Positions 1 through 49,384 of a stretch of 64,000 nt of DNA are shown here, piece after piece (the stretch's first letter is position 1; each line of letters opens with the position of its first letter). Under the pieces are notes generated by a model that saw only the letters and a list, made by a program, of their open reading frames with translations, was not told the origin of the DNA and made no database searches. The stretch lies in the IMG/VR virus record IMGVR_UViG_3300042900_000713, positions 39,886-103,885 of that record; one strand, given 5' to 3'. The position numbers were made by a program, and so were the translations under genes. The DNA comes from a virus. Its lineage: Duplodnaviria; Heunggongvirae; Uroviricota; Caudoviricetes.

Positions 1-34
1 TCGGAATTGTCCTGAATAGTAATTGCCATGATGA

Positions 35-166
35 TCAGATAAGGTGAGCAGGGGAACCGCAGGAACGATAGAAGTCTACCATGCGCAGAGCATCATCTAG
101 AGTGGAGAATGTTTGTGTTCTCCACTCGCAAGCATTGTACGGAGTTTGGTAACGGATTGAAAACAT
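35..166 (-). CDS. hypothetical small protein (43 aa)
   Basis: ATG at 164-166, TGA at 35-37, ATGA-overlap with next minus gene; no recognizable promoter. Confidence 0.25.
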   Translation of the reverse strand: MFSIRYQTPYNACEWRTQTFSTLDDALRMVDFYRSCGSPAHLI

Positions 167-189
167 GATCGTTTTAGAGAGTGTAAAGA

Positions 190-237
190 ATGGGGGAGGG
201 ATTCTCCCCCTTGTGCCAGTTGCTAGATTGTCACCCG
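190..237 (-). promoter_or_regulatory. cassette E1 (box + GGGGGAG hairpin; no clear -10)
   Basis: gggggagggattctccccc + ttgtgccagttgctagattgtcac. Confidence 0.5.
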
Positions 238-488
238 ATCAGGGCAGCGGCGAGACGATCGCGCTTGCGGATGTTAACAATTGACCACTGATTGCGCTTG
301 CCATTACTAGAACGGGTCGCGGTGAGAATACCATCATCTTCCATGTCTACCATTACGGCATGGATTGTACCTTTGTGACGCTTCGGATCCATACCCATAA
401 TGCGCACGAGATCGCTACATGTTTGCGGTCCCTGTTGAATGAGAACGCTGCGGACTGCGATGCGGGTCAGAGCGGAGAAGTTGAGCAT
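231..488 (-). CDS. hypothetical protein, 85 aa (possible winged-helix-like)
   Basis: Internal ATG (486-488) lies immediately after cassette E2; the 166-aa track ORF 231..731 reads through the cassette and is probably artefactual. Confidence 0.5.
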   Translation of the reverse strand: MLNFSALTRIAVRSVLIQQGPQTCSDLVRIMGMDPKRHKGTIHAVMVDMEDDGILTATRSSNGKRNQWSIVNIRKRDRLAAALIG

Positions 489-572
489 CGGTCGGTGTCG
501 GTGTTGACTCTTTAATCCTAGTCGGTCAGGAGGGGGACCCGTGAGTCCCCCGAACCAGTTGTCAGACTGTCC
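489..572 (-). promoter_or_regulatory. PeSL-like cassette E2 (subfamily A)
   Basis: ttgactctttaatcctagtcggtcagg + GGGGGA…TCCCCC hairpin + box ccagttgtcagactgtcc. Confidence 0.6.
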
Positions 573-750
573 CGGCAGCGGGGATCCGTTTCTCAACTTC
601 TCGAGAATTGCGACCGGCGCCAGTGGCAGCATAAAATCGGGTTTTTGCGCCACCGACGCGGGAGCATACGAGTTCGCTACGCTTTGGTTTCGCAGTGGGC
701 AGGATGGTGACGGTGAAAGTCTGACCGTCAATGATCTCGATGGTGTTCAT
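562..750 (-). CDS. hypothetical protein 62 aa; C-terminal ~15 aa encoded by cassette E2
   Basis: ATG after E3 leader; stop inside E2 box (…GTV*). Confidence 0.3.
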   Translation of the reverse strand: MNTIEIIDGQTFTVTILPTAKPKRSELVCSRVGGAKTRFYAATGAGRNSREVEKRIPAAGTV

Positions 751-837
751 TGGTCTCGTGTGCGGTGTTGACTCTTTAATCCTAGTCGGTCAGGAGGGGG
801 GAACCGTGTCCCCCTTGTGCCGGTTGCTAGATTGTCA
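751..837 (-). promoter_or_regulatory. PeSL-like cassette E3 (subfamily A)
   Basis: Near-identical to E4 over ~85 bp including the first codon of the downstream gene. Confidence 0.65.
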
Positions 838-1089
838 CAGCATCTCGATCAGATGCATCATCGTGGTGATCTGAACCGGGGTCTGCCAGATGATGACATC
901 TTCCAACATATTGCCATTCGGGCGCATTACACCAACCTCGAAAGTGTCGTGCTGAATGTCACCTTTGAGTCCAGAATCCTTCGGACCCGCAACTACACTA
1001 ATGGTCCAATAGTTCCGGAAAGTGTACTCTGCGCGAGTGCCACCTTTGACTACACTGTGATCGAAGAAGTTCAGATCGGAGAAGTTCAT
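835..1089 (-). CDS. hypothetical protein 84 aa
   Basis: ATG follows E4 leader; stop in E3 box. Confidence 0.5.
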   Translation of the reverse strand: MNFSDLNFFDHSVVKGGTRAEYTFRNYWTISVVAGPKDSGLKGDIQHDTFEVGVMRPNGNMLEDVIIWQTPVQITTMMHLIEML

Positions 1090-1175
1090 TGGTCTCGTGT
1101 GCGGTGTTGACTCTTTAATCCTAGTCGGTCAGGAGGGGGAACCGTGTCCCCCTTGTGCCGGTTCTTCAAGTGTCT
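1090..1175 (-). promoter_or_regulatory. PeSL-like cassette E4 (subfamily A)
   Basis: ggtctcgtgtgcggtgttgactctttaatcctagtcggtcaggagggggaaccgtgtcccccttgtgccggttcttcaagtgtc. Confidence 0.65.
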
Positions 1176-1366
1176 TGGAGTTTTATTTGGGCATTATTCC
1201 AACGGCATACCGCACGATGTTTTGTGCCACAATCTTTGGTTGATGTGTGGTTATTATCACAAATCACCTTCCACATATCACGAAAATCCCAATCTTCAAT
1301 ACATTTTGCTTTTGCACCACATCTTGCACAAGGGGTAATGGGTGGAGTTTTAATTTTCTGTGCCAT
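1166..1366 (-). CDS. Cys-rich small protein 66 aa
   Basis: ATG follows E5 TATAAT promoter; stop TGA in E4 box. Confidence 0.5.
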   Translation of the reverse strand: MAQKIKTPPITPCARCGAKAKCIEDWDFRDMWKVICDNNHTSTKDCGTKHRAVCRWNNAQIKLQDT

Positions 1367-1446
1367 CAGTTCTCTGTGTGTATGAAACTATTATAAGGCA
1401 TCCAGAGGCATCCAGAGCACCCCTTGTGCCACTGATCAGACTGTCA
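1367..1446 (-). promoter_or_regulatory. cassette E5 (box + TATAAT -10)
   Basis: Minus: CTGATCAGTGGCACAAGG…GCCTTATAATAGTTTCATACACACAGAG…ATG. Confidence 0.6.
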
Positions 1447-1762
1447 CAAGGTATTGCCAGTTCTGATAGGTTTGCTTTACATCATCAGAGAATCTTACCA
1501 GTTCAGGATAACCTTCGCAGCGAATCCAAAGATAACAAATGATGCATAAGTCTTTAACTTGTGCATATGTTTTTTGAATAAGATCTTTACCACCATTCTT
1601 ATACCATTGTGCAATCTTTGTGCAAATGAAGGAAACAACAGCAACAGAAACAGCAACAAAAACAATACAAACATTGATCAGATTGTAAAAGTGTTTTTTG
1701 TACTCGATCTTTGAAAGTACACTGATCAGATCGTCAACGGGAGGAAAAGATGCGGTAAACAT
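1436..1762 (-). CDS. small membrane protein (~108 aa, one TM)
   Basis: Internal ATG at 1760-1762 preceded by E6 and GGGAtgtgtcTCCCC hairpin; hydrophobic stretch VCIVFVAVSVAVVSFI. Confidence 0.5.
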   Translation of the reverse strand: MFTASFPPVDDLISVLSKIEYKKHFYNLINVCIVFVAVSVAVVSFICTKIAQWYKNGGKDLIQKTYAQVKDLCIICYLWIRCEGYPELVRFSDDVKQTYQNWQYLVTV

Positions 1763-1860
1763 TGTTTTCTGATGAGGGGGGAGACACATCCCTCACAAGA
1801 TTTAAGATAACAGAAAATCAGGGGTCGTGGCGATCTTATGTGCCAGTTGTCAGACTGTCC
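1763..1860 (-). promoter_or_regulatory. cassette E6 (box + leader hairpin)
   Basis: atgtgccagttgtcagactgtcc box; GAGGGATGTGTCTCCCCCCTC hairpin before ATG. Confidence 0.5.
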
Positions 1861-1985
1861 ACCTTGGTGACCTTATGGGTCTGATGATGCTGTAGGATAA
1901 GGGGACAATCAGCAAAGACAGCAGAGGGGTATCTGCTTGATCAATCCATCGCCACTGAAGCACCTCTCAAATAGTAAGATAAAAA

Positions 1986-2014
1986 GTATAAAAAAAGGAG
2001 GCATGATTGCCTCC
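1986..2014 (-). terminator. rho-independent terminator (minus strand)
   Basis: Minus: GGAGGCAATCATGCCTCC + TTTTTTTATAC, downstream of 2031..2225. Confidence 0.7.
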
Positions 2015-2030
2015 AAGTTGATGTAATGAA

Positions 2031-2225
2031 TTAGTTGCCTCCTTCGAATAGAATTGCATCAGATTCTTTCAGATCTTCGAGGGTCATTGTACCTGCAGAA
2101 TCACCCTCAAAATCTGAAGTCTGGCACTCAACAACTTCTAAACCAGCGTCTTCGATTTGATCAATCGATGAACCTCGTATCCAGCAATAGCGACCGGCAG
2201 CATCAGCGCAGAGGAAAACTTCCAT
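2031..2225 (-). CDS. hypothetical protein 64 aa
   Basis: ATG (MEVFLC) directly after E7 leader CAAAGACACACCC; intrinsic terminator downstream. Confidence 0.5.
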   Translation of the reverse strand: MEVFLCADAAGRYCWIRGSSIDQIEDAGLEVVECQTSDFEGDSAGTMTLEDLKESDAILFEGGN

Positions 2226-2316
2226 GGTGGTTGGGTGTGTCTTTGGTTGACTCTTTAATCCTAGTCGGTCCAAAGGGGGAACCGAGTCCCCCTTGTGCCA
2301 GTTGTCAGAGTGTCAC
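2226..2316 (-). promoter_or_regulatory. PeSL-like cassette E7 (subfamily A)
   Basis: ttgactctttaatcctagtcggtccaaagggggaaccgagtcccccttgtgccagttgtcagagtgtcac. Confidence 0.65.
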
Positions 2317-2622
2317 AGCAGAATCAAACTCTTCAATCTTACCATCATAAGCAATAAACCAAGTGTGATTTTTCTGATAGACAGATTCATCACCCTTACC
2401 ATTCTCCCGAAGGAGAGCATTAAGGCGAGACTTAGTTGTTTTAGTCTTCCAACCGCAATGATGAATAGTAATGAAACCTTCACCAATCTCGGCAATCTTA
2501 TGACCGTGAAGGTAAACTCGGGAAACTTCGTTACCCTCTTCATACTCAACACGAGTATTATCAAGGGACCAATCCTTACGGTTAAGGATTGCTGCGTTCA
2601 TCAGGGTTTCGATCTTACGCAT
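2305..2622 (-). CDS. hypothetical protein 105 aa
   Basis: ATG after E8 leader; stop in E7 box. Confidence 0.55.
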   Translation of the reverse strand: MRKIETLMNAAILNRKDWSLDNTRVEYEEGNEVSRVYLHGHKIAEIGEGFITIHHCGWKTKTTKSRLNALLRENGKGDESVYQKNHTWFIAYDGKIEEFDSAVTL

Positions 2623-2708
2623 GGTTTGAAGTGGTTTGGTTGACTCTGTAATCTTAAGGGGTCCGAAGGGGGAACCGTGTCCCCCTTGTGCCAGTTGTCA
2701 GAGTGTCA
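2623..2708 (-). promoter_or_regulatory. PeSL-like cassette E8 (A variant, -10 TAAGAT)
   Basis: ttgactctgtaatcttaagg + gggggaaccgtgtccccc + box. Confidence 0.6.
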
Positions 2709-2942
2709 CGCTGCCACTAGTTCAGTCGTGGGGATGAGCATACGCTCAGCAACCCAACGGCGGTAGGTTTGACCAATCGAACCGGTAGGACTTTCAAGGT
2801 AGTTAACAATCACGTCCTCACTTTCAGTGACGAAAGTGTAAACATTATTCAGATTGCCCTGAAAAGTGATGCTAACTTCTTGACCTTCGACATCAACAGA
2901 AGCGATGCAGGAAGATTGTTGCTCAGTAAAAGTGAAGTTCAT
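2706..2942 (-). CDS. hypothetical protein 78 aa
   Basis: ORF ends in E8 box. Confidence 0.5.
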   Translation of the reverse strand: MNFTFTEQQSSCIASVDVEGQEVSITFQGNLNNVYTFVTESEDVIVNYLESPTGSIGQTYRRWVAERMLIPTTELVAA

Positions 2943-3007
2943 GATAATAATAAAAAAAAGGGTTTGTTTGAGGCAGTTTTACATCTTACCTCAGGATGCT
3001 TATAAGG

Positions 3008-3160
3008 TTAGTCTTTATACAGATTATGAATCTTAGAGCGAATGGTGAACACTTGCTCTGGATCATAATCCTCATTATCCAAAGCATGACCAATGAAGTT
3101 GTAAATCATATCCCACTCATCTTCAGTAAAGAACTCTTTAATGGTGTCAGTGGTAGTCAT
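3008..3160 (-). CDS. hypothetical protein 50 aa (MTTTDT… N-terminus duplicated in 3275..3427)
   Basis: ATG after E9 leader CAAAGGCAAACCA; not in ORF track (<60 aa). Confidence 0.4.
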   Translation of the reverse strand: MTTTDTIKEFFTEDEWDMIYNFIGHALDNEDYDPEQVFTIRSKIHNLYKD

Positions 3161-3243
3161 TGGTTTGCCTTTGGTTGACTTACTTAAGATAACAGATCTT
3201 CAGGGTCTTGTGTGAGATCTCGTGCCACTTTGGAAACTGGCAC
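3161..3243 (-). promoter_or_regulatory. PeSL-like cassette E9 (subfamily B; palindromic box GTGCCA-N10-TGGCAC)
   Basis: ggttgacttacttaagata…cgtgccactttggaaactggcac; duplicate of E10. Confidence 0.6.
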
Positions 3244-3274
3244 ATCTCGACGAGATTGTAGTCTCGACTAGATT

Positions 3275-3427
3275 TTACATGCCCAGTAGTTTGTAATTAA
3301 GTTCGGATACTTCACCAACATCTAAACCAGTAATTTCCTGAACCTCATAAGAACTAAGTTGATTAAAGATCATGAGAAGTGCCGCAATCTCGCGGGCAGT
3401 GAATTGATTGGTGTCAGTGGTAGTCAT
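3275..3427 (-). CDS. hypothetical protein 50 aa (MTTTDT…)
   Basis: ATG after E10 leader; E10 is a duplicate of E9 including the first six codons. Confidence 0.4.
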   Translation of the reverse strand: MTTTDTNQFTAREIAALLMIFNQLSSYEVQEITGLDVGEVSELNYKLLGM

Positions 3428-3504
3428 TGGTTTGCCTTTGGTTGACTTACTTAAGATACAGGATTTTCAGGGTCCTGTGTGAGATCGTGTGCCACTTTGG
3501 AAAC
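3428..3504 (-). promoter_or_regulatory. PeSL-like cassette E10 (subfamily B)
   Basis: ~80-bp duplicate of E9 including MTTTDT codons. Confidence 0.6.
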
Positions 3505-3636
3505 TGGCACACGTAGGTTCATTGGTGAGTTAAAAAATCTACGGAATGCAGTAACAATAATGATACCCGTAGAAACTACACCAATCAAACCCAAAAAAGT
3601 AACCGTATCACCAGTGAAGTTGTAAGTTTCAATCAT
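3451..3636 (-). CDS. small membrane protein; C-terminal part read from cassette E10
   Basis: Hydrophobic N-terminal 40 aa; ORF continues through E10. Confidence 0.35.
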   Translation of the reverse strand: MIETYNFTGDTVTFLGLIGVVSTGIIIVTAFRRFFNSPMNLRVPVSKVAHDLTQDPENPVS

Positions 3637-3791
3637 CAGAAATCATGCCCAGAGTTAAGTGATTCGTTGAATGAAGCATCATCGTATCCATCTTCATCAT
3701 CATCACGAAGATAAGGATCATTCTCAAGTTGCTCCACAAGATCAAAACGAGATAGTTCCTCGATTTGATACCTTTGAGTGTAAGGATCCAT
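3636..3791 (-). CDS. acidic small protein ~51 aa
   Basis: ATG (MDPYTQ) after E11 TATGAT promoter/leader. Confidence 0.45.
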   Translation of the reverse strand: MDPYTQRYQIEELSRFDLVEQLENDPYLRDDDEDGYDDASFNESLNSGHDF

Positions 3792-3876
3792 TTGTTGTCT
3801 TTGGTGTGACTTGTTTATCATAGCAGCAGTTTAGAGACTTGCCTAGGTCTGTTGTGCCAGTTCTTATTCTGTCACA
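3792..3876 (-). promoter_or_regulatory. cassette E11 (subfamily D, -10 TATGAT)
   Basis: ttatcatagcagcagtttagagacttgcctaggtctgttgtgccagttcttattctgtcac; ~60 bp near-identical to E20. Confidence 0.6.
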
Positions 3877-4103
3877 ACCTCATAATCATAATCACTTACA
3901 CACCACCCAGAATCATCAGATAGTTTATCTGTCAATGCTTCAACAATGAAGTCAACAAAGTATTCTGGGTCTTCATCAATCTCAACCGTGAAGATCTTAT
4001 TCTCATAAGATTCTTCAACATCAATCATGTAGTTTTCATCTACATCATTGTCACCAGAAAAATCAAACTGAACATTGTTAACTTTAACCTGAACTTCAAT
4101 CAT
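3864..4103 (-). CDS. hypothetical acidic protein 79 aa
   Basis: ATG after E12 leader; stop in E11 box (…VVTE*). Confidence 0.55.
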   Translation of the reverse strand: MIEVQVKVNNVQFDFSGDNDVDENYMIDVEESYENKIFTVEIDEDPEYFVDFIVEALTDKLSDDSGWCVSDYDYEVVTE

Positions 4104-4186
4104 GATGTTTGAGGTGGTTGACTTGTTAATCTTAAGGGATCAGAGGGGGATCTCATGTCCCCCTTGTGCCAGTTGTCAGACCGTCA
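4104..4186 (-). promoter_or_regulatory. PeSL-like cassette E12 (hairpin GGGGGAtctcatgTCCCCC)
   Basis: Compensatory loop change relative to E3/E4 hairpin; -10 TAAGAT; box at fixed 31 bp. Confidence 0.6.
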
Positions 4187-4354
4187 CATCATACTTCATA
4201 AAACTTATAGTGGCGAATCTCTGACTGATAGAATGCTTCATCTTCAGAATCATTACAGAACCCGAGAAGATAGTTGCAAAGTTCGACCCGATGATTGCAA
4301 ACATCTTGCAGAATCTCAGGATTGCGTTGAAAGCAGTTGTTGAAATCGCGAATC
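4187..4354 (-). CDS. Cys-rich small protein 55 aa
   Basis: ATG after E13 leader CAAAGACACCCAAC; stop next to E12 box. Confidence 0.4.
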
Positions 4355-4440
4355 ATGTTGGGTGTCTTTGGTTGACTTGTTTAGTATAAGGCACCCAGAG
4401 CGGATCTTGGGTGCCTGTCTGTGCCAGTTGTCAGACCGTC
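4355..4440 (-). promoter_or_regulatory. PeSL-like cassette E13 (subfamily C, -10 TATACT)
   Basis: Hairpin ggcacccagagcggatcttgggtgcc + box gtgccagttgtcagaccgtcac. Confidence 0.6.
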
Positions 4441-4642
4441 ACATCAGGTCTTCATACTCACCAGAATCCATCGCATCTTCCAGTGCAGTCACCAGACCGT
4501 CGAAGTCTTCAGATGAAGGTAGGATACCAGTGAGAATGTTGACCAGATCACCATACTCTTCGCGGAGTTCGTCCAGATACTCTTTGCGATCAGCGTAACC
4601 GTTATCAGTGTAGACGGACATGAGTGGTTCGGTGTTGAACAA
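4439..4642 (-). CDS. acidic small protein 67 aa (alternative start MSVYT at ~4619)
   Basis: Degenerate cassette upstream; stop in E13 box. Confidence 0.45.
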   Translation of the reverse strand: MFNTEPLMSVYTDNGYADRKEYLDELREEYGDLVNILTGILPSSEDFDGLVTALEDAMDSGEYEDLM

Positions 4643-4712
4643 ATGTAATGTAGCAGCAATTCTCCACCAACACCAGAGTCCTGTGCCACTTCAGGAACCG
4701 TCTGAGAGGTGC
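4643..4712 (-). promoter_or_regulatory. degenerate cassette (box variant gtgccacttcaggaaccgtctga)
   Basis: Box-like sequence upstream of 4439..4642. Confidence 0.35.
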
Positions 4713-4896
4713 CCACAAGGACCTACAGCACCCTTGTAATAGTATTGTATACTCAAAGTACACAAACAAAAAAATAGATCAGGAACCACCCTGATCTACA
4801 TTATACTCAAACACCTACAAATACTTTAATTATAATTTACTCTACTCATTGGGTAACTTTTCTTATAGTGAGGCAAACCCATTCCTCATATTTAAT

Positions 4897-5064
4897 TTAA
4901 GCAGAAACCTCCATCCATTCAATATCATTACGGTAGACAATCATTGGTGATCCGTAATCATCAACCTCATCAACGGCAAAATTAACTGCATGATGTTCTG
5001 ATGTAAAGAACTCCAGATCATCAGGATTAGATTTAGGAGCAACTGACCAGGAAACGAATGCCAT
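4897..5064 (-). CDS. hypothetical protein 55 aa
   Basis: Internal ATG (MAFVSW) after E14 leader CAAACAAACGTC. Confidence 0.4.
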   Translation of the reverse strand: MAFVSWSVAPKSNPDDLEFFTSEHHAVNFAVDEVDDYGSPMIVYRNDIEWMEVSA

Positions 5065-5144
5065 GACGTTTGTTTGGTTGACTTGTTTAGTATAAGGCAC
5101 CCAGAGCGGATCTTAGGTGCCTCGTGTGCCAGTTCTCAAACTGG
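5065..5144 (-). promoter_or_regulatory. PeSL-like cassette E14 (subfamily C)
   Basis: ggttgacttgtttagtataaggcacccagagcggatcttaggtgcc + box. Confidence 0.6.
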
Positions 5145-5315
5145 TCTGCTGTTCTTTGCTGCATGAATCAATTCTTCTTCTGACAGAATGTCAATGTAAC
5201 CATTCGGATAAACACTGCAGAAGTGATCCAGTGCATCATCTGCTTCATCATAAGAAGCATAAACCGCCAGAGTCTCATATGCATCTGGAGTGATCTCAAC
5301 GATGTAGTGTTCCAT
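5136..5315 (-). CDS. acidic small protein 59 aa
   Basis: ATG after E15 leader CAAAGGACACCTCTC; stop in E14 box. Confidence 0.45.
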   Translation of the reverse strand: MEHYIVEITPDAYETLAVYASYDEADDALDHFCSVYPNGYIDILSEEELIHAAKNSRPV

Positions 5316-5400
5316 GAGAGGTGTCCTTTGGTTGACTCTGTAATCATAAGGTACCTACAGGGTCTTCTAGGTGCCTCTTGTGCCAGTTCTTAAAGTGTCC
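5316..5400 (-). promoter_or_regulatory. PeSL-like cassette E15 (hairpin ggtacctacagggtcttctaggtgcc, -10 TATGAT)
   Basis: Different hairpin sequence, same architecture and spacing. Confidence 0.6.
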
Positions 5401-5735
5401 AATTCTTATTTCCAAACACCAAAATATGACTCCTATGTGATAAGATTAAAATACAAAATCTTATCAGGAATCGTCCTGTTATTTTTTATTTCTTACACTT
5501 CTCATCCTAACCGATCTGTTAGAGACTTATAATATGATGTTTCACTGTTTGATTTATTATGTCCTGTTTTATTACGCCGGAGACAGGATATTATGACCAA
5601 CTCCCTCTTTTTATAATGATCAATAACACATAATGTATCATAAGATCATTTGGTTCTTTTAAGATTGTTACCTCTTAGTGCCGTAGCAAGAGTTCAATTG
5701 CTTATCAGAATTAATGTTCTTATGTATCTATTTAG

Positions 5736-5879: not shown

Positions 5880-5980
5880 AAGTGTTTCTGAAGGGGTTTA
5901 GAGGAACTTAAAGATCTTATAGAATACAATTATTCTCAACCGGGACAAACCTAGTCTAGCAGTAACCTGATGGTCTTGTC

Positions 5981-6013
5981 AAGCCTTATGTTAATATTAC
6001 GTAACATAAGGCT
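5981..6013. other. perfect 12-bp-stem hairpin AGCCTTATGTTA-N8-TAACATAAGGCT
   Basis: Lies between genes 6027..6305 and 5736..5879, overlapping the TTGACA -35. Confidence 0.6.
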
Positions 6014-6305: not shown

Positions 6306-6377
6306 CGGGTGTCCTTGGGTTACCTGAGTATCTTACACGCCTTCTAGGGTCTTACAGGCATCTCTCAGACGGTTCTT
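6306..6377 (-). promoter_or_regulatory. cassette E16 (box variant, -10 TAAGAT)
   Basis: cagacggttcttaaagtggcac. Confidence 0.45.
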
Positions 6378-6511
6378 AAAGTGGCACAGCAACTCACCAT
6401 AAGGACTGTCTTATGTCTTATGATGTATTCACAACCAAACGAGGTCTGATGTAGGACCAGATGTAAATGATCGTCACTGAACCTACCAAAAAATAATAAG
6501 AATTAAAACAT

Positions 6512-6538
6512 AAAAAAAGGGTTCCTTATAAGGAACCC
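6512..6538 (-). terminator. rho-independent terminator (minus strand)
   Basis: GGGTTCCttataaGGAACCC + TTTTTTT, downstream of 6546..7058. Confidence 0.7.
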
Positions 6539-6545
6539 TGATGTA

Positions 6546-7362: not shown

Positions 7363-7456
7363 GAGATTTCAGTGGTGTGTAACAAATGTAATATAAGGGT
7401 TCTATGGGGGATCTGTCAACCCCCAGAACCATTAGCAATCCTTATGTGTCAGACAC
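7363..7456 (-). promoter_or_regulatory. cassette E18 (hairpin GGGGGttgacagaTCCCCC with TTGACA in loop; -10 TATATT)
   Basis: TTGACA-18-TATATT on the minus strand. Confidence 0.55.
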
Positions 7457-7631: not shown

Positions 7632-7670
7632 TGAAGGTACTATACGATGATATGAGAGGTTTGTCAAGGG
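7632..7670 (-). promoter_or_regulatory. sigma70-like promoter TTGACA-17-TATAGT (minus strand)
   Basis: Minus strand CCCTTGACAAACCTCTCATATCATCGTATAGTACC; drives 7449..7610. Confidence 0.55.
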
Positions 7671-7768: not shown

Positions 7769-7797
7769 TTGACAAAAATGCCCTCGTGTGATATAAT
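7769..7797 (+). promoter_or_regulatory. perfect consensus sigma70 promoter TTGACA-17-TATAAT (plus strand)
   Basis: ttgacaaaaatgccctcgtgtgatataat; faces the iteron arrays and the HNH gene. Confidence 0.6.
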
Positions 7798-8714: not shown

Positions 8715-9101
8715 CGTAACTTGAGAAGGTGTTCCATCAAACTTATAATGATACGTAAGAGCATCTGCTTTTACATAATGATCATGATTTACTGATACAC
8801 CAAGAAGATCACACAGTTCCTTATGATTATCTTCTTGATATTCAATTGCATATAACATATGATTCAGAACATGCTCTTCTGAATGATACAAACATAAAAG
8901 TTCCTTAAGACGCACAATGAAATTACCGGAACCAGCACACAGATCTAAAAACTTGAAATTTGGATTCTTGAGTGTTTCTACTGGTATTTCTGCTAACATC
9001 TCATTGACCAATACTGATGGAGTAAAGACTTCACCAGTATTATCAATTCGGTCTTGAGTTCTTTCAAGACTTGAACCTACATTCTTAACCTTTTTTGACA
9101 T
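8697..9101 (-). CDS. DNA methyltransferase, SAM-binding half (motifs X and I)
   Basis: EVFTPSVLV (motif X) and LDLCAGSGNF (FxGxG); overlaps upstream ORF by 17 nt in another frame. Confidence 0.6.
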   Translation of the reverse strand: MSKKVKNVGSSLERTQDRIDNTGEVFTPSVLVNEMLAEIPVETLKNPNFKFLDLCAGSGNFIVRLKELLCLYHSEEHVLNHMLYAIEYQEDNHKELCDLLGVSVNHDHYVKADALTYHYKFDGTPSQVTLDCFF

Positions 9102-9924: not shown

Positions 9925-9985
9925 TGGAGTTGTTTATTATAGGGTCGTCTGAGATGTTCCGTGTGTCAGTTGTTCAGGTGTCCAT
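9925..9985 (-). promoter_or_regulatory. cassette E19 (box variant + TATAAT)
   Basis: Minus: CTGAACAACTGACACACGG…CCCTATAATAAACAACTCCAATG. Confidence 0.5.
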
Positions 9986-11746: not shown

Positions 11747-11828
11747 GTGTGGTGTTCTTGATACCTCTGTATTATAGGGGCACACAGGAGCATGTGGAGT
11801 GGTGTGTGTGCCAGTTTGAGAAGTGGAT
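11747..11828 (-). promoter_or_regulatory. cassette E21 (box + TATAAT)
   Basis: gtgccagtttgagaagtggatc box; CCCCTATAATACAGAGG. Confidence 0.55.
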
Positions 11829-13258
11829 CAGAAAAGTTTACCGTGTGGTGCAAAAATGTCACTTAATTTACGATTCTTCTTTAATGAAATGTAGAGCATG
11901 TCAGTCCAAAATTCTTTTTGATCTTTTTGCTCCAAAGATTCTGATAAAAACTCAAGTTGCATCAATTTACTGATTGCAATGTTTTTATTTTTAGTTTCAT
12001 CTGAGTTGAATAAATCTTCAATGTATTGAGAAAATTCCTTTCTATTTTTAATATCTGTCTTTACTCTTTTACGCTTTATCTTTACAAATAAAGTTTCATA
12101 TTTTTTTTGCACTCCTTGCTTTTTAAATTCCTCTAATGTATTTGGATATTTGCTATAGTTATTTTCAAATTTTTTATCTAATAAAGTTTCAACCAAATCA
12201 ACTGGAGCCTTTCCTCCTCTTCCACCTGAATCTTTGATATTACTCTCAAATTTTAAATTTGATATTTTTTTATCTGATCCAGAGTTACTTTTAATTTGTA
12301 TTTTATTTTTATCCAGAGTTACTTGAGATTGCTCTACATATTCTTTTGTACCCTTCTGGTACATATTATATTCTATTTCTATTTTATCTACATTATACTC
12401 ATCATCCATATCTTCACTATTTAAGAGAAAATCTTTCATATTTACATAAACAAATCTTGCTTGATTAGCAGTAACCTTTTTAAGAGAAACTCCAATTAAA
12501 TATTCTTTTTTTATTAAATTTCTAAGAATATCATTTAATTCTGATAATGTTTGTGTTTTGGGTTTTCCTTGGATTGATTGTGATAAGATATCTTTAATTT
12601 CAGATTTTTTATCTTTACGAACAATCCATATGTCACTTGGATTCCAAGTTTCATATCTACCAGAATATACCTTCTTCAAACAGATTTTAATAAATTTAGT
12701 AAAATTATCCCCACTCTCTTTATATTCAATTTTTTCCCATTCTTTACCTTTAAATCTTTCTGTTATTTTTTTATTTTGCTTTAGATAAGATTCAAACCAT
12801 TCTGTTGGAATATGATTATTATTAAATATCTTTTTTAATTCAAGATATTCTGGATCATTTTTAACATCTTTAAGTGATTCAAAAGTTACGTTACCAATTA
12901 GTGATCTGTTGAAAATCCAAACAGATCCATCTTCTTGAGTTTTGGTAGTGAGTATTGGTGATTGTTTAGTAATAAACTTTATATCAATTTTTTGGGTTAC
13001 TATTTTACCAGATTTTTTTTCTTTATAGAGAATGGTGATAATTTTATTACTCTTATTTGCATAATTTAAAGTTGCTGTTGGATCTATTTTTTTCAAAGTT
13101 GCTGGCAATTTAATTAATTTTACAACATCAGAATAAGAACTATCAAACCTAGATTTTGATAGTTCTATATCAATTTCTCCATATTTAATTGAAATATCTA
13201 CGTTTACATCTGTATAAACCTTATCTTCTAATAAAGTCAATATTTCTTTTTCTTTCAT
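11828..13258 (-). CDS. Lys-rich 476-aa protein of unknown function on an AT-rich island
   Basis: Long ORF; GC content far below neighbours; stop in E21 box. Confidence 0.6.
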   Translation of the reverse strand: MKEKEILTLLEDKVYTDVNVDISIKYGEIDIELSKSRFDSSYSDVVKLIKLPATLKKIDPTATLNYANKSNKIITILYKEKKSGKIVTQKIDIKFITKQSPILTTKTQEDGSVWIFNRSLIGNVTFESLKDVKNDPEYLELKKIFNNNHIPTEWFESYLKQNKKITERFKGKEWEKIEYKESGDNFTKFIKICLKKVYSGRYETWNPSDIWIVRKDKKSEIKDILSQSIQGKPKTQTLSELNDILRNLIKKEYLIGVSLKKVTANQARFVYVNMKDFLLNSEDMDDEYNVDKIEIEYNMYQKGTKEYVEQSQVTLDKNKIQIKSNSGSDKKISNLKFESNIKDSGGRGGKAPVDLVETLLDKKFENNYSKYPNTLEEFKKQGVQKKYETLFVKIKRKRVKTDIKNRKEFSQYIEDLFNSDETKNKNIAISKLMQLEFLSESLEQKDQKEFWTDMLYISLKKNRKLSDIFAPHGKLF

Positions 13259-14984: not shown

Positions 14985-15066
14985 TTCAGTTCGTTGGTTG
15001 TTCTTTCATAGTATAGTATCCCACACACCATCCCAGAGCACCCCTTGTGCCGGTTCTTCAAGTGTC
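14985..15066 (-). promoter_or_regulatory. cassette E22 (box + TATACT)
   Basis: ccccttgtgccggttcttcaagtgtc. Confidence 0.55.
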
Positions 15067-15288
15067 TCCCCTCACTTCCTCATAAGTCGTCACATCTAAA
15101 CGGGATTTGCCTACCCACATTTTACCACAAGAAAGGCAATTCACTTTGAAAGTTGTTATATTTGCATCGGGGTTAGTATTCACTCCATTTTTATCATAGA
15201 CTGGAATATATGATGCAAGAGTTGATGATCCACCACTATGAGAAAAAGCACAATCCTCTCTAGGACATTCTGGATTTGGGTTTTTCAT
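15058..15288 (-). CDS. Cys-rich zinc-ribbon-like small protein
   Basis: CPRED…CLSCG; stop in E22 box. Confidence 0.5.
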   Translation of the reverse strand: MKNPNPECPREDCAFSHSGGSSTLASYIPVYDKNGVNTNPDANITTFKVNCLSCGKMWVGKSRLDVTTYEEVRGDT

Positions 15289-18483: not shown

Positions 18484-18563
18484 TGTGGTTCTGTGTGTAT
18501 GAGTGTATTATAGGGTATTATGGACGGTTGTGGAGTTCCCTTGTGACGGTTCAAAGAGTGTCC
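18484..18563 (-). promoter_or_regulatory. cassette E23 (subfamily E: TATAAT + CATACACA leader)
   Basis: gtgtatgagtgtattatagggtat…cttgtgacggttcaaagagtgtcc. Confidence 0.6.
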
Positions 18564-18569
18564 TACCCC

Positions 18570-20874: not shown

Positions 20875-20957
20875 TTGGAGTTTGTCTTGTGTATGAGTGT
20901 ATTATAAGGCATCTGGTGACCCTGTGGAGGGTGTTTGTGCCGGTTTCTCAAGTGTCC
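20875..20957 (-). promoter_or_regulatory. cassette E24 (subfamily E; TCCACA-17-TATAAT)
   Basis: ~80% identical to E25 over 80 bp. Confidence 0.65.
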
Positions 20958-21145
20958 CCAACAGAGTTGAGAGCAAGACCAATTCTACTAATTTTATTTT
21001 CTAAACTATTGTAATACTGATAAACATAATTATCATCAAGATTATCATTTTTTGCTTTCCTCACAAGAGCAAGCAAATCGTTAATCTCATAATTACTAAA
21101 GGGTTCTACCGTCCATTCACCGATAGATACAACTTTTTTAGTCAT
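20948..21145 (-). CDS. hypothetical protein 65 aa
   Basis: ATG after E25; stop in E24 box. Confidence 0.45.
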   Translation of the reverse strand: MTKKVVSIGEWTVEPFSNYEINDLLALVRKAKNDNLDDNYVYQYYNSLENKISRIGLALNSVGDT

Positions 21146-21227
21146 CAGGTGTCTTTGTGTGTATGAATGTATTATAGGGCATCTGGTGCCCCTGTGAAGT
21201 ACCCTTGTGCCGGTTTCTCAAGTGTCC
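21146..21227 (-). promoter_or_regulatory. cassette E25 (subfamily E; TTCACA-17-TATAAT)
   Basis: gtgtatgaatgtattatagggcatctggtgcccctgtgaagtacccttgtgccggtttctcaagtgtcc. Confidence 0.65.
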
Positions 21228-21257
21228 TCGTTCTCTATTTCCGAATAGCGAATAATA

Positions 21258-25784: not shown

Positions 25785-25863
25785 TCATTCCTTGGTTTCT
25801 CACAGTATAGCAGAAGGCACACCACCTCACCAGAGACAGTGTGACGGTTCTTCAAGTGTCCTC
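25785..25863 (-). promoter_or_regulatory. cassette E27 (box + TATACT)
   Basis: gtgtgacggttcttcaagtgtcc. Confidence 0.55.
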
Positions 25864-30640: not shown

Positions 30641-30720
30641 CGGTTTGCTTGTGTATGTGAGTATCATAGCAGAAACACACCACCCCACAAGGAGCAGTGT
30701 GCCGGTTCTTCAAGTGTCCT
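30641..30720 (-). promoter_or_regulatory. cassette E29 (box + TATGAT)
   Basis: gtgtatgtgagtatcatagcag…gtgtgccggttcttcaagtgtcc. Confidence 0.6.
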
Positions 30721-31057
30721 ACTTAAGGAGTTCTTCAGGGGACTTTTGAGTGCAAATTTGGTACTGGTTCCCTTCGGTTGCGGTGTGGCGAAGGCATTCA
30801 TTCCACCGAGGGTCGGGAGTTACATTAGAATACTTTGTAGACCAGTCATACCAGCGATTTGCGTGAGGAAGATAGACATTCACTCGCACAAGTCGTTGAT
30901 TAGAAAACCACGCCTTACACTGAACTCCTTCAAATACACGACCACGATTGTTATAATAAACATTACAAGTCGTAGAACGATATACTGTTTGTGAATATGC
31001 AGGAAGAGTGAATAGAAAAACTGAAGCAGCAAGAAGAAGGTTTTTCATAAGTATCAA
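30719..31057 (-). CDS. secreted protein with signal peptide (112 aa)
   Basis: MKNLLLAASVFLFTLPAYS… ; stop in E29 box. Confidence 0.55.
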   Translation of the reverse strand: MILMKNLLLAASVFLFTLPAYSQTVYRSTTCNVYYNNRGRVFEGVQCKAWFSNQRLVRVNVYLPHANRWYDWSTKYSNVTPDPRWNECLRHTATEGNQYQICTQKSPEELLK

Positions 31058-31492: not shown

Positions 31493-31585
31493 TGGATGGG
31501 TGGTTCCTTTGCGGTTATGAAGTCATTATAGCAGAAAACACACCACACCCGAAGGTGTAGTGTGCCGGTTCTTAAAGCGTCACTT
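31493..31585 (-). promoter_or_regulatory. cassette E30: box + terminator-like hairpin + T-run + TATAAT
   Basis: Minus: CCGGCACACTACACCttcgGGTGTGGTGTGTTTTCTGCTATAATG. Confidence 0.6.
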
Positions 31586-32594: not shown

Positions 32595-32660
32595 TTGGAG
32601 TTTTCAAATCAACAAACATAGTATAGGGTGAATTGGTCGGTTATGCAAGGGGTCTTGTGC
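32595..32660 (-). promoter_or_regulatory. cassette E31 (box + TATACT)
   Basis: cttgtgccagttcaacgagtggcaac. Confidence 0.5.
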
Positions 32661-32664
32661 CAGT

Positions 32665-32943
32665 TCAACGAGTGGCAACTTTTAAAATAATCACATCAAA
32701 AGTAGGAGTATCATATAATATAAAAACTGATGCTTTCACCAAAAACTTATCATCCAAAGTATGAATCACAAAGGTAAGAGGCCATGCTTCTTCCCATCCA
32801 CATTTACCATAATAAAACAGTTTTGCCGCTTCTTCCACAATATCTTCAATTGTCTTATCATAAGGATTCAGAATTGAAAATCTCTCAAAATCAGAAGCAA
32901 GTTCTAAAATTGAAAACTTGTAGTGACGGTTAAGTGTTTTCAT
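32665..32943 (-). CDS. hypothetical protein 92 aa
   Basis: ATG after E31 (-10 TATACT). Confidence 0.5.
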   Translation of the reverse strand: MKTLNRHYKFSILELASDFERFSILNPYDKTIEDIVEEAAKLFYYGKCGWEEAWPLTFVIHTLDDKFLVKASVFILYDTPTFDVIILKVATR

Positions 32944-34047: not shown

Positions 34048-34128
34048 TTGAGGTCTTTGTGTGTATGAGAGTATTATAGGGCATCAGGACACAAAGTTCA
34101 AGTGCCTCTGTGACGGTTCAAGGAGTGT
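34048..34128 (-). promoter_or_regulatory. cassette E32 (subfamily E; TTGAAC-18-TATAAT)
   Basis: gtgtatgagagtattatagggcatcagg…ctgtgacggttcaaggagtgtcc. Confidence 0.6.
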
Positions 34129-34130
34129 CC

Positions 34131-34319
34131 TCAATAATCCGTATAAGTTTTCAGTTCTCCACACTTTTTACATCGTAGAGTGTATTTGGAACCAATGGGA
34201 AAGTGTTTTCCTGTTAAAATATCTTCAGGAGTAACCTCAAAATCAAATACTTTTTTCTTGCCTTCTATCTCCCATTCGTGAAAGCATCCAGTCAGTAGAA
34301 ATTCAAGTAGTTTTTTCAT
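34131..34319 (-). CDS. zinc-ribbon small protein ~62 aa
   Basis: Internal ATG (MKKLLEF) ATGA-coupled; CxxC…CKKCG; stop in E32 box. Confidence 0.45.
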   Translation of the reverse strand: MKKLLEFLLTGCFHEWEIEGKKKVFDFEVTPEDILTGKHFPIGSKYTLRCKKCGELKTYTDY

Positions 34320-34793: not shown

Positions 34794-35336
34794 TCAACCT
34801 TTATGATTTTTATCAAATGGTGCCTTGAAGTAATGATTTGCCGAACTATGAAATACAATTAAACCTTCAACATTCATAAAACCAGGCGAGGCAAGAGAAC
34901 CTTTTCCTTGGAGTTCATACATTAAGTGATTAATCACAGCAGTATCAAACTCTCCAGTATAAAGAGTAGGAACAACATAGCAACATTCTGGTTTGTTTTC
35001 TTCATTCCAGATATTTACATTAAACAAGGAGAAACGCTTCTCACCTTTTGGAAGATTATAACCTCGTTGAATACCACTTCCCCACCATTCTCCGTGATGA
35101 CGACCAGGACCAAGTTTCATCAGTTCGCTCTTATTTTCAGATGCCCAACGACGAAAACCAAAGTTGTCGGCATCCTCACTCAACCAACGATTACGACTGC
35201 CGATAAACATATCTCCATCGTCAGTGATGTAGATAAGACCATTGGTTCCGTCAATCTTTTCGGTGACTACGCATTCTTTATGAAGACGGGGAATCTTGGG
35301 AAAGGGAATAAATTCAGGGTAAACAGTTAGACTCAT
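34794..35336 (-). CDS. Rnl2-like RNA ligase-family nucleotidyltransferase (adenylyltransferase domain only, 180 aa)
   Basis: Motif [10 protein letters not shown] (KxDG lysine), motif IV-like NVEGLIVF, motif V-like FKAPF…K. Confidence 0.65.
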
Positions 35337-35658: not shown

Positions 35659-35740
35659 TGAGGGTGCGTTCTTACCCTACTATCATATGGCATCCTGTGA
35701 GGCAGTGGAGTCGTCTTGGGACAGTTCTTCAAGTGTCTTT
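35659..35740 (-). promoter_or_regulatory. cassette E33 (box + TATGAT)
   Basis: gggacagttcttcaagtgtc. Confidence 0.5.
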
Positions 35741-37135: not shown

Positions 37136-37213
37136 GATGTGTTTGGTTGACTTGTTTAGTATAGGATGTCTTGATCGTCTGTGAGAGACCCTTGTGCCAG
37201 TTGATCAGGTGAC
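37136..37213 (-). promoter_or_regulatory. cassette E34 (subfamily C leader, TATACT)
   Basis: ggttgacttgtttagtatagg…cccttgtgccagttgatcaggtgacc. Confidence 0.55.
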
Positions 37214-37455
37214 CTCTTGGCATTCATTTCATCTTCAATTTTACCACGCTCATAGCATCCACTCAGGTACAGTGGAGCAACCAGAATGCCCATAAGTCCA
37301 GCACCACTCGCAAAACCCCTAATATCATTACTCTTATTCAGTCCTGCAAGTCCACCCATAAGAAGAAATGCGATGAGAAGAGCAGTACCTGGATGATCAC
37401 CACAGGAATCAAGATGTCCAATTCCTTTGATTGTGCGACGAATTGTTTGAATCAT
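37156..37455 (-). CDS. small membrane protein 99 aa
   Basis: Two hydrophobic segments; stop in E34 box. Confidence 0.5.
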   Translation of the reverse strand: MIQTIRRTIKGIGHLDSCGDHPGTALLIAFLLMGGLAGLNKSNDIRGFASGAGLMGILVAPLYLSGCYERGKIEDEMNAKRSPDQLAQGSLTDDQDILY

Positions 37456-38373: not shown

Positions 38374-38456
38374 GAGTGCTGTATGTGTACTTTAATAGTA
38401 TAGGGTGAATTGAATCAGTTGTCAGTGGTCAGTGTGCCAGTTCAATAAGTGTCACA
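38374..38456 (-). promoter_or_regulatory. cassette E35 (box + TATACT)
   Basis: cagtgtgccagttcaataagtgtcac; 31-bp spacing. Confidence 0.55.
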
Positions 38457-44347: not shown

Positions 44348-44428
44348 TGAATTTTTCTTGGTTATGAAAACATTATACCATAAAAAAGAGGGTCTTGAGA
44401 ACCCTCTGTGTGCCAGTTTGAAAAGTGG
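44348..44428 (-). terminator. E36: box + intrinsic terminator hairpin + T6 overlapping extended -10 TGGTATAAT
   Basis: Minus: AACTGGCACACAGAGGGTTCTCAAGACCCTCTTTTTTATGGTATAATG. Confidence 0.65.
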
Positions 44429-44434
44429 TTTTAA

Positions 44435-45637: not shown

Positions 45638-46093
45638 TTATCCTCTAATAATAGTATCAAAACCCTCCTCGTTTGTTGGAAGTTCATATTCTTTTATCAT
45701 TCTCTCAAGGACTTCTGGTGGAATGACTTTACCTGGTCTTTGGGTATTTCTTTTGAGTGCTGTTTCTAATGATACCACAAAGTACACTGCTGTTTTTTTA
45801 TAAGTATCTGGAATATGCTTAAGTTTCTCACGTCTTTGCTTCTTGGTCAAATTTGTTTGATCCCAAATTATACTCTTACCATCTTCTATTGCTTGCCTAA
45901 GAACCTTCATCATAGCAATCTGTGCGAACCTTATGTTTCCTTTAAAAACAGTATTATAAGATTGCTGGCGTTCTTTTGCGACCTCTTGAAGAATGTCATC
46001 AGAAGAAACGCGAACATATTTTTTGTATTTTGGATCATTGGAGAAGGTTGATTTTCCTGCAGTAGGAATGCCAACAAGCATTATCAGTTCCAT
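45638..46093 (-). CDS. polynucleotide 5'-kinase (T4 PseT kinase-domain-like, P-loop)
   Basis: Walker A GIPTAGKST near the N-terminus; 151 aa; overlaps the RNA ligase gene by 10 nt. Confidence 0.7.
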   Translation of the reverse strand: MELIMLVGIPTAGKSTFSNDPKYKKYVRVSSDDILQEVAKERQQSYNTVFKGNIRFAQIAMMKVLRQAIEDGKSIIWDQTNLTKKQRREKLKHIPDTYKKTAVYFVVSLETALKRNTQRPGKVIPPEVLERMIKEYELPTNEEGFDTIIRG

Positions 46094-47244: not shown

Positions 47245-47322
47245 TACTTTGATTTATAAGGTCATTATAGCAAAAAAGGAGGGCGTTGAAACCCTCCTTG
47301 TACCAGTTTAAAAATTGTCTAC
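47245..47322 (-). terminator. E37: terminator hairpin + T6 + TATAAT (degenerate box)
   Basis: Minus: GGAGGGTTTCAACGCCCTCCTTTTTTGCTATAATGACC. Confidence 0.65.
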
Positions 47323-48512: not shown

Positions 48513-48590
48513 AATTTGATTTTGTTTACAAGGTTATTATAGAGTGTTTGAGTGAGAAGTGAGAGCATCCTTGTGCCAGTTTAGCAATCG
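48513..48590 (-). promoter_or_regulatory. cassette E38 (box + TATAAT)
   Basis: ccttgtgccagtttagcaatcgccac; 31-bp spacing. Confidence 0.55.
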
Positions 48591-49299: not shown

Positions 49300-49384
49300 A
49301 ATAAGATTCCTTTGAGTTACTGTGTAATTATACTAAAAAAGGGTTGCTTGTGACAACCCCCTGTGACAGTTTTTAAATTGGCTC
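49300..49384 (-). terminator. E39: box variant + terminator hairpin + T6 + TATAAT
   Basis: Minus: GGGGGTTGTCACAAGCAACCCTTTTTTAGTATAATTAC. Confidence 0.6.

Follow-up and report, generated by a model that had tools for sequence, protein, structure and literature searches.

In this work we describe a repeated DNA element, here called the box, that stands upstream of about 37 promoters in a 64,000 nucleotide (nt) stretch of viral DNA (Caudoviricetes; IMG/VR record IMGVR_UViG_3300042900_000713, positions 39,886 to 103,885), referred to below as the window and numbered from its first letter. Judged from its sequence the box is the same cis-element that lies upstream of the Yfr2 small RNA (sRNA) genes of cyanobacteria, and on balance we favour its serving a host factor, probably of the PlmA type, as an upstream activator site at early promoters without a -35 element. 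The proteins of the window place it as a new T4-like cyanophage of the Kyanoviridae type. T4-like cyanophages rank with the most abundant viruses of oceans and lakes and we know of no factor identified as reading their early promoters since these were described. The shared Yfr2 element, together with half-sites in common with CGRE1, an element with a known binder, therefore provides a concrete candidate in PlmA and its homolog PMM1637. In the literature searched we found no description of the link to Yfr2 promoters, of the half-site shared with CGRE1 or of the candidate factor.

The preliminary description of this DNA had noted the box at 4104-4440 and both copies are indeed found there, on the minus strand. 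Their 22-bp cores (4166-4187 and 4421-4442) each read GTGACGGTCTGACAACTGGCAC and the corresponding 24-bp dyads (4165-4188 and 4420-4443) both read TGTGACGGTCTGACAACTGGCACA. Over the whole window the pattern GTGMCA-N10-TGGCAC, with at most one mismatch, gave 22 strand-matches, far above the 0.2 expected from shuffles. A weight matrix built from 26 box copies returned about 37 minus-strand units between 212 and 55798 as against 0-2 matches in shuffled sequence, and an additional dyad at 6365-6388 that faces a -10 in both directions. The resulting consensus is a 24-bp imperfect dyad, TGTGaCAcTT-N4-AAcYGGCACA, whose halves match at 8/10 positions, the promoter-proximal half being nearly invariant and the distal half looser (GTGACA, GGGACA, AGGACA, GACCA). 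Conserved positions that were not selected for include, counted from the start of the TGGCAC hexamer, G at -14, C at -12, A at -11, T at -9, AAC at -3 to -1 and A at +6. Although no search pattern covered the distal half, both the window and about 150 copies on contigs of related phages show it conserved. The dyad symmetry claimed earlier, a perfect repeat in some copies and an imperfect one elsewhere, stands in that perfect GTGCCA-N10-TGGCAC is confined to two copies (3222-3243 and 3489-3510; 24-bp dyads 3221-3244 and 3488-3511), but the full symmetry is longer than the 22 bp first given and extends over 24 bp. The units with the perfect repeat are recent duplicates and precede paralogous open reading frames (ORFs). 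The same two asymmetric positions recur in most box copies with no compensatory changes, which argues for a DNA site read by a protein and not for an RNA stem.

The geometry of the promoters is strict. In the 37 copies the distance from the 3' edge of YGGCAC to the best TAnnnT is 30 nt (n = 14), 31 nt (n = 17) or 32 nt (n = 3), with single copies at 29, 27 and 21 nt, and the fixed spacing of 30-32 bp proposed at the outset thus holds in 34/37. The position of the box itself has to be corrected. It had been put at about -55 to -40, but if the -10 hexamer is placed at -12 to -7, the 22-bp box extends from about -65 to about -44 and is centred near -54.5, ten bases upstream of that estimate, with its proximal edge at about -43/-44 if transcription starts 7 nt after the -10. 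Alignment on the -10 gave the consensus TATAAT, with the ATG 22-28 nt after the hexamer. No -35 consensus was found 17 nt upstream of the aligned -10s of the window units, and from -35 to -20 only a weak (A/G)TGCC is conserved. The units therefore have the features of an activator-dependent sigma-70-type promoter, namely a -10, no -35 and an upstream site at fixed spacing. Near-perfect canonical, host-like promoters (TTGACA-17/18-TATAAT) cluster at 5.9-9.1 kb, at 5953-5982, 7390-7419 and 7639-7667 on the minus strand and 7769-7797 and 8721-8749 on the plus strand. As canonical TTGACA-17-TATAAT promoters exist separately in the window we regard the box promoters as a separate class.

Both copies within 4104-4440 illustrate this layout, each with a GC-rich hairpin, a hexamer 31 or 32 nt after TGGCAC and A(A/C)AAGTCAACC followed by the ATG. 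At the first box (4165-4188, minus) the TGA stop of the upstream 55-amino-acid (aa) ORF is 2-3 nt upstream of the dyad, and the 31-nt spacer holds the hairpin GGGGGAC..ATCCCCC (4141-4162, minus; folding free energy (dG) -12.2, z -3.2), which has no T-run and is likely the 3' stem-loop or terminator of the upstream gene. The -10 TAAGAT (4129-4134, minus) lies 31 nt from TGGCAC and leads into TAACAAGTCAACCACCTCAAACATC and then the ATG at 4103. The second box (4420-4443, minus) holds the TGA stop of the upstream 67-aa ORF. Its spacer hairpin, GGCACCCA..TGGGTGCC (4389-4416, minus; dG -16.9, z -4.1), repeats the GGCAC/GTGCC core in its arms, and the -10 TATACT (4383-4388, minus), 32 nt from TGGCAC, is followed by AAACAAGTCAACCAAAG and the ATG at 4356.

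A search of host genomes for the same dyad, suggested in the preliminary description, led to the promoters of Cyano-1/Yfr2 RNAs. One genome per species (185,579 species) was scanned with the full dyad TGTGMCANTTNNNNAANTGGCACA, which gave 99 loci. Twenty-five of these were counted as cyanobacterial, a proportion that looks far above the share of that phylum in the collection. In 15/25 cyanobacterial loci a Cyano-1 RNA (Rfam RF01701) is found 38-40 nt from the box and is transcribed away from it; the taxa include Nodularia, Anabaena, Cyanocohniella, Snowella, Merismopediaceae, Cyanothece and a Synechococcales metagenome-assembled genome (MAG). Read on the RNA strand the host promoters consist of TGTGCCAnTTnnnnAAnTGTCACA, 29-31 nt, TAnnnT, 4-7 nt and (T)TGTGTGTGAGGAG, the 29-31 nt at the host genome loci being the distance between TGTCACA and TAnnnT. 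The 5' start of Cyano-1 is GUGUGAGGAG. As this fits the conserved 5' motif of Yfr2, which is nearly complementary to the conserved motif of Yfr1 (Lambrecht et al. 2019, PMC6778093), Cyano-1 is treated here as part of the Yfr2 family.

In order to avoid the bias of a box search, environmental Yfr2 genes were gathered from metagenomes by their RNA sequence alone, giving 100 distinct upstream regions. TGMCA-N10-TGKCA was present in 42/100, on low- and mid-GC contigs, and in 35 of these 42 the -10 lies 30-31 nt from TGKCAC (31-32 nt from TGKCA). A second arrangement, CAACYGKCAC-A-GTGMCAGTTG, was present in 22/100. Its contigs have a GC content of 51-65%, and 42 nt separate its proximal edge, at about -55, from the -10. 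A matrix made from 35 host boxes only recovered 32/37 phage boxes at 10 bits, with 0-3 matches in shuffled windows. The window consensus conforms to the host box both as the dyad TGMCA-N10-TGKCA and in its extended form, TGTGMCAnTT-N4-AAnTGKCACA, and the host distance of 30-31 nt from TGKCAC to TAnnnT compares with 30-32 nt in 34/37 phage copies. An Rfam search of the window gave no RNA match and the phage box copies precede protein-coding ORFs, so it is the promoter and not the sRNA gene that the phage would have copied. The Yfr2a promoter of Synechocystis equals that of psbA2 in strength (PMC2662882), which would make a Yfr2 promoter a good model to copy.

We read the high-GC arrangement as the published CGRE1, a 21-22-nt palindrome in the yfr2 promoters of Prochlorococcus and marine Synechococcus that begins 55-57 nt upstream of the transcription start, with 13-14 nt between its two flanks, GTTG and the inverse of GTTG (Lambrecht, Wahlig and Steglich 2018, PMC6191309); sequence agreement in length (21 nt), flanks and position points to this assignment. 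A first reconstruction of CGRE1 as GTTG-N3-GTGNCAC-N3-CAAC was discarded as it had no metagenome match and the scan anchored on Yfr2 gave the order CAAC...GTTG. PMM1637, a GntR-family homolog of PlmA, was identified by DNA pull-down with CGRE1, and the purified protein shifts the promoters of yfr2 and yfr4, and its R50A mutant gives no shift; in E. coli the wild-type protein raises reporter expression (PMC6191309). The box and CGRE1 have the same 10-bp half-site (CAACTGKCAC / GTGMCAGTTG), both are palindromes upstream of a -10 promoter that lacks a -35, and both lie on the same helical face with centres about 10.5 bp, or approximately one helical turn, apart. In the two arrangements the GTGMCAGTT half has an almost unchanged position (about -65 to -56), and the gene family downstream of the box in other cyanobacteria is again Yfr2/Cyano-1. 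These comparisons suggest that a PlmA-responsive element may not be confined to marine picocyanobacteria and that a second arrangement of it could occur across cyanobacteria. If so, the box arrangement would be an unrecognised general cyanobacterial form of CGRE1.

A palindrome of the CGRE1 type, AACTGKCACAGTGMCAGTT, was also seen in 34 viral contigs of IMG/VR, mostly just upstream of a gene starting MIKS... In several of these contigs a TTGACA...TATAAATA promoter precedes the palindrome, which would then fall within the 5' untranslated region, and as it is extended to GTTAC...GTAAC it could also form a hairpin in the RNA. The site is used differently here.

The dyad, its fixed distance, the missing -35, the host Yfr2 box and the CGRE1 half-sites together favour the site of a dimeric transcription factor over a passive UP element, as had been supposed. 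As to the source of that regulator, left between phage and host, the evidence supports a host activator; a phage-encoded regulator is disfavoured because uninfected hosts use the same site. We infer that the host factor of CGRE1, or one related to it, also binds the phage box and activates, that the genes are early and that transcription starts about 7 nt after the -10. In the mechanism we propose, a pre-existing dimeric host regulator would bind the 24-bp dyad centred at about -54.5 once phage DNA has entered the cell, the most likely binder being a GntR-family protein of the PlmA type, whose Prochlorococcus homolog PMM1637 binds and activates yfr2 promoters. Bound on one helix face, the regulator would recruit or stabilise the host RNA polymerase holoenzyme at the TATAAT-like -10 in a class I manner, and its contact would substitute for the missing -35 such that about 37 small genes, mostly of unknown function, are fired immediately and strongly. 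The 30-32 bp spacer would be free sequence that often holds the stem-loop or terminator of the preceding gene, and tightly packed upstream ORFs would run into the TGA, TAA or TAG triplets of the box and stop.

Class I activators such as CRP act from positions such as -61.5 and -72.5. Box promoters resemble class I promoters in that the dimer site is placed upstream of the -35 region and strictly phased to the -10, the core promoter has no good -35 and alternative positions lie one helical turn apart. They differ from those of CRP in the sequence recognised and in the half-site spacing (TGTGA-N14-NCACA in the box compared with TGTGA-N6-TCACA) and in the unusual centre at -54.5, and for the phage box contact with the C-terminal domain of the polymerase alpha subunit is assumed.

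A number of observations weigh against PlmA as the factor or against the generality of the scheme. The half-sites of the box face inward with a 4-nt gap (GTGMCAGTT-N4-AACTGKCAC), whereas in CGRE1 they abut in the opposite order (CAACYGKCAC-A-GTGMCAGTTG) and the centre is at about -65 and not -54.5. Binding of PlmA is demonstrated for the CGRE1 arrangement alone and for the phage box it is a candidate binder. CGRE1 has its edge at 55-57 nt, whereas that of the phage box lies nearer to the start by one helical turn, and the CGRE1 arrangement itself (CAAC...GTTG/GTTA flanks 13-14 nt apart) gave only chance-level partial matches in the window and in Syn9. The box further differs from CGRE1 in being carried by a phage, in about 37 copies, and in driving protein-coding genes. 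CGRE1 is limited to marine picocyanobacteria according to its authors (PMC6191309), and Syn9 and S-RIM2, whose hosts are marine picocyanobacteria, carry the box arrangement and not CGRE1. Among the 100 environmental Yfr2 promoters 36 fit neither arrangement. In Syn9 the matrices find only about 7 clear box copies, and the box may not cover all early promoters in every cyanophage.

The same box is also found in Acidobacteria, and PlmA is described as universal in and exclusive to cyanobacteria (PMC6191309). In four acidobacterial loci it adjoins a conserved gene for a GntR-family protein of about 300 aa (Pfam GntR, 4e-14) and a hexamer resembling TAGAAT or TACTAT lies about 30 nt downstream. 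This protein has a PlmA-like length and an uncharacterised C-terminal domain. No relation to PlmA beyond the helix-turn-helix domain was found in a word-indexed search (31 close relatives), in NCBIfam and PDB (a match to that domain only) or in a profile search whose best 150 matches were close relatives. One box 24-mer is identical in Terracidiphilus and Chroococcidiopsis, and six further loci were recorded.

In view of these searches, and as PlmA is reported as exclusive to cyanobacteria, the factor could belong to another family. It would then be some other host protein (a dimeric regulator, a specialised sigma factor or a protein associated with RNA polymerase) that also controls the Yfr2 promoters, with the logic of the circuit unchanged. 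The unlike arrangement of the box and its recurrence with a -10 at about 30 nt in Acidobacteria speak for such a factor, but the 10-bp half-site is the same as in CGRE1 and the acidobacterial neighbour of the box is itself GntR-family and of PlmA-like length. We consider this possible though rather unlikely.

Other dyads from the genome scan have a different setting. In eight Bacillota loci a perfect TGTGCCAnTT-N4-AAnTGGCACA lies beside a Mor-family gene, and in five loci of Coriobacteriia such a perfect palindrome lies beside a Fic-domain gene inside a larger nested inverted repeat; both sets of palindromes have conserved intergenic contexts. The dyads of Bacillota, Coriobacteriia and Ktedonobacter have a -10 spacing of 19-26 nt, unlike the cyanobacterial and phage cases, and their neighbour genes differ.

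The assignment of the window to the cyanophages comes from its proteins, as a megablast of its first 8 kb against 50,697 phage records gave no match. Its DEAD/ResIII helicase has 48.5% identity to the counterpart in freshwater Synechococcus phage S-SRM01, and of the records matched by this helicase 414/426 are named as Synechococcus, Prochlorococcus or other cyanophage. Pfam assigns the ORF at 2305-2622 to Kyano_Gp96 (6e-36), and its 396 tblastn matches are to cyanophage records in nearly all cases. Nearly all window genes are on the minus strand and their starts have CA-rich leaders without a Shine-Dalgarno sequence, as we would expect for cyanobacterial hosts.

The box is conserved among T4-like cyanophages upstream of small ORFs of the early region. 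It is found in S-RIM2 and S-RIM32 upstream of the gp96 homolog and of neighbouring small ORFs and in Syn9 upstream of gp73, gp78, gp79 and a few others, and a pattern scan of IMG/VR gave 40 loci with the same architecture on contigs up to 243 kb. At most of the 154 AACYGGCAC sites in these loci the distal half, which the pattern did not select, is present (tGTGaCA/GTGCCA) and the layout downstream is the same. The host-derived matrix gave 256 matches followed by a -10 in the IMG/VR loci, chiefly at 31 nt (134), 30 nt (56) and 32 nt (39). The box is thus kept across phages whose DNA is otherwise unalignable and, from these sequence comparisons, is a family-wide feature of Kyanoviridae-type phages. 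Doron et al. (2016, ISME J) reportedly found that a novel regulatory element controls the early genes of Syn9 and P-TIM40; this non-canonical element is said to be conserved among T4-like cyanophages, with host-like promoters driving the middle genes. To our knowledge no factor was named as binding it. The box is likely that element, and this type of element has probably been described for cyanophages before; the two are alike in that Syn9, S-RIM2 and S-RIM32 carry the box and that the window has a separate set of TTGACA/TATAAT promoters. In addition, phage-type box promoters with CA-rich leaders were seen on seven short contigs in MAGs binned as Patescibacteria, Polynucleobacter, Nanopelagicaceae, Pirellulales, Clavibacter and Flavobacteriales, which are probably mis-binned cyanophage fragments.

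In a further explanation a phage-encoded or virion-delivered protein binds the box, the promoters form a middle-type class like that of T4 MotA, and the likeness to Yfr2 is mimicry by which the host factor is competed with or displaced. Within the gene cluster the 85-aa ORF at 231-488 (minus) is winged-helix-like by eye and has its own promoter with a degenerate box, and marine hosts use CGRE1 while their phages use the box arrangement. Set against this, the identical element and spacing occur at host sRNA genes in uninfected cyanobacteria of many orders, the window was searched for a GntR-like gene and none was found, the 85-aa ORF matches no Pfam family and gives just one weak match, to a PHROG of unknown function, and a box at -54.5 is unlike the MotA box at -30. 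A phage factor of this kind seems improbable to us, and activation by a host factor remains the reading that we prefer.

The relation of the box to the genes before it accounts for a further part of the pattern. That many upstream ORFs end inside the box, as had been noted, is seen in 23/37 units, the stops falling at four recurrent offsets and being either the TGA of GTGACA or a TGA, TAA or TAG within the central N10; most of the remaining upstream stops lie a few bases upstream of the box. We read the in-box stops as incidental, arising where tightly packed genes abut an element with stops in two frames. Folding of the spacers gave hairpins at <= -8 kcal/mol in 17/37 units and no strong hairpin in the other 20/37. 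T-runs are present in 5 spacers, and those of units 31525-31584, 44372-44432, 47264-47322 and 49327-49385 are terminator-like. As the linear distance from box to -10 is the same in all units, with or without a hairpin, the spacer hairpin would be a passenger outside the recognition mechanism and is most likely the 3' stem-loop of the upstream gene.

Hairpins and duplicated units could instead mean that the box has no protein-binding role and is part of a mobile cassette of stop, stem-loop and promoter spread by recombination, or marks an RNA 3' end or processing site. In favour are the folded spacers and T-runs, a box palindrome that could itself fold in RNA, and the near-identical promoter cassettes at 779-839 and 1118-1177 and at 3186-3244 and 3453-3511. 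The small ORFs that follow these cassettes are unrelated or paralogous, which suggests that the cassettes were duplicated or recombined. However it is sequence and not pairing that is conserved, with the same two mismatches and no compensatory changes, the -10 spacing is fixed irrespective of hairpins, host sRNA promoters share the box upstream of the transcription start, and the element is conserved across phages with unalignable DNA. We regard this explanation as very improbable.

The cassettes may be compared with the PeSL (promoter-early stem-loop) cassettes of T4-type phages, reportedly described by Arbiol, Comeau, Krisch and colleagues in 2010, in which a stem-loop is said to be followed by an ordinary sigma-70 -35/-10 promoter. 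Both are short repeated stem-loop and early-promoter cassettes between small ORFs of plastic regions, with near-identical copies, but in the phage units the stem-loop is nested between box and -10 (17/37) and there is no -35.

Several other readings of the box were rejected. A sigma-54 promoter (TGGCAC-N5-TTGCW, -24/-12) does not fit the variable sequence after TGGCAC, which has no TTGC, and we know of no sigma-54 in cyanobacteria. A CRP/FNR/NtcA site (TGTGA-N6-TCACA or GTA-N8-TAC at -41.5/-61.5) is at odds with half-sites 14 nt apart and a centre at -54.5. A T4 MotA middle promoter, with a box at -30 replacing the -35, is not compatible with the region from -35 to -20, where nothing but the weak (A/G)TGCC is conserved. 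Sites for extracytoplasmic function (ECF) sigma factors or LexA and a DnaA box misfit in sequence or spacing. A promoter for a single-subunit phage RNA polymerase or an N4-type hairpin promoter was set aside because the hairpins vary in place, size and presence and the -10 is a clear TATAAT. Cruciform extrusion bringing TGGCAC to -35 was set aside because the residual spacing is not constant and 20/37 spacers have no strong hairpin.

If the box is indeed read by a host activator, the early expression of the phage could be tied to the physiological state of its host. In Prochlorococcus both high light and nitrogen starvation induce Yfr2, and PII-PipX is an interaction partner of PlmA (PMC6191309); early phage transcription would accordingly be gated by host light and nitrogen status through the wiring of PlmA to PII-PipX and high-light stress. 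The dozens of phage boxes could also titrate PlmA from Yfr2 and disturb the Yfr1/Yfr2 sRNA network. We put forward only tentatively the wider idea that T4-like cyanophages of fresh and marine waters start infection by hijacking the host PlmA/Yfr2 circuit with copies of the strong Yfr2 promoter, which in Prochlorococcus responds to stress. Its confirmation would connect the takeover by the phage with nitrogen and light signalling of the host and provide a compact, strong and host-factor-dependent promoter for cyanobacterial engineering. Cyanophage promoters with host NtcA and PhoB sites are known (Sullivan et al. 2010, PMC3037559; Pho boxes of S-PM2d, PMC10976474) and likewise place host transcription factor sites in phage promoters, coupling phage genes to the physiological state of the host. 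Those sites are few per genome and serve auxiliary or replication genes, whereas the box is shared by an entire class of promoters.

The remaining units, all on the minus strand and given from box to -10, are as follows. Towards the left end of the window the unit at 180-235 has an atypical spacing of 27 and that at 515-574, upstream of the 85-aa ORF with its resemblance to a winged helix-turn-helix protein, has the degenerate proximal half TGGTTC. The units at 779-839 and 1118-1177 are nearly identical over about 70 nt and are followed by units at 1390-1448, 1804-1862, 2258-2317 and 2651-2710, the last of these upstream of the Kyano_Gp96 homolog. The perfect GTGCCA-N10-TGGCAC belongs to 3186-3244 and its duplicate 3453-3511. 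Next are 3817-3876, 4647-4705 with a weaker distal half, 5089-5148, 5343-5402 and 6330-6388. The dyad of this last unit (6365-6388; -10 TAAGAT at 6330-6335) is common to a divergent plus-strand promoter at 6365-6424, in which 31 nt separate it from TATGAT (6419-6424). The plus-strand transcript would contain no ORF and run about 115 nt to a bidirectional hairpin at 6518-6539, and the region 6365-6540 is a candidate for a phage small RNA.

Further along, the outlier at 9936-9985, downstream of a DNA methylase gene, has its box 21 nt from a perfect TATAAT in a class II-like position. Units are also found at 11771-11830, 15010-15069, 20901-20959 and 21171-21229. The proximal half is CGTCAC at 18507-18565, 25804-25863, 34073-34132 and 55739-55798, the last with a strong spacer hairpin, and TGTCCC at 35682-35740. 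A spacer hairpin is present at 30663-30721, and that at 31525-31584 is terminator-like with a T-run, while the spacers at 32620-32679, 38397-38456 and 48536-48595 have no hairpin. The unit at 37158-37216 has the leader AGTCAACC. A canonical intrinsic terminator (hairpin and T6) occupies the spacer at 44372-44432, and spacer terminators are also found at 47264-47322 (proximal half TGGTAC) and 49327-49385 (proximal half TGTCAC). The unit at 52466-52523 is weak, with a spacing of 29.

A second conserved module starts approximately at the predicted transcription start (window 500-5400 and 37146-37163). Its sequence here is A(A/G)AGTCAACCAAAG, that of the marine cyanophages Syn9, S-RIM2 and S-RIM32 is TATAAGAGTCAAAG, and other units carry ACAnTCATACACA in its place. 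As the module is absent from host Yfr2 promoters it may be phage-specific, and it may represent a 5'-leader or translation element for mRNAs that lack a Shine-Dalgarno sequence. The (A/G)TGCC motif recurs 2-8 nt upstream of many -10s (e.g. 4389-4396, 11777-11784 and 21177-21183) and several spacer hairpins have GGCACC/GGTGCC arms, thus reusing the half-site core; these could be extra weak half-sites.

Beyond the promoters, the window encodes two proteins of RNA-ligase families (an Rnl1-like protein of 386 aa and an RNA_ligase protein of 180 aa) and two large methyltransferase-glycosyltransferase fusions (414 aa and 940 aa), the larger of which also has TPR repeats and a DUF6445 domain; coordinates for these ligase and fusion genes are 34794-35336, 46084-47244 and 55797-59860. 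The first part of the window (1-2000) is unusually GC-rich at 47% compared with about 36% elsewhere.

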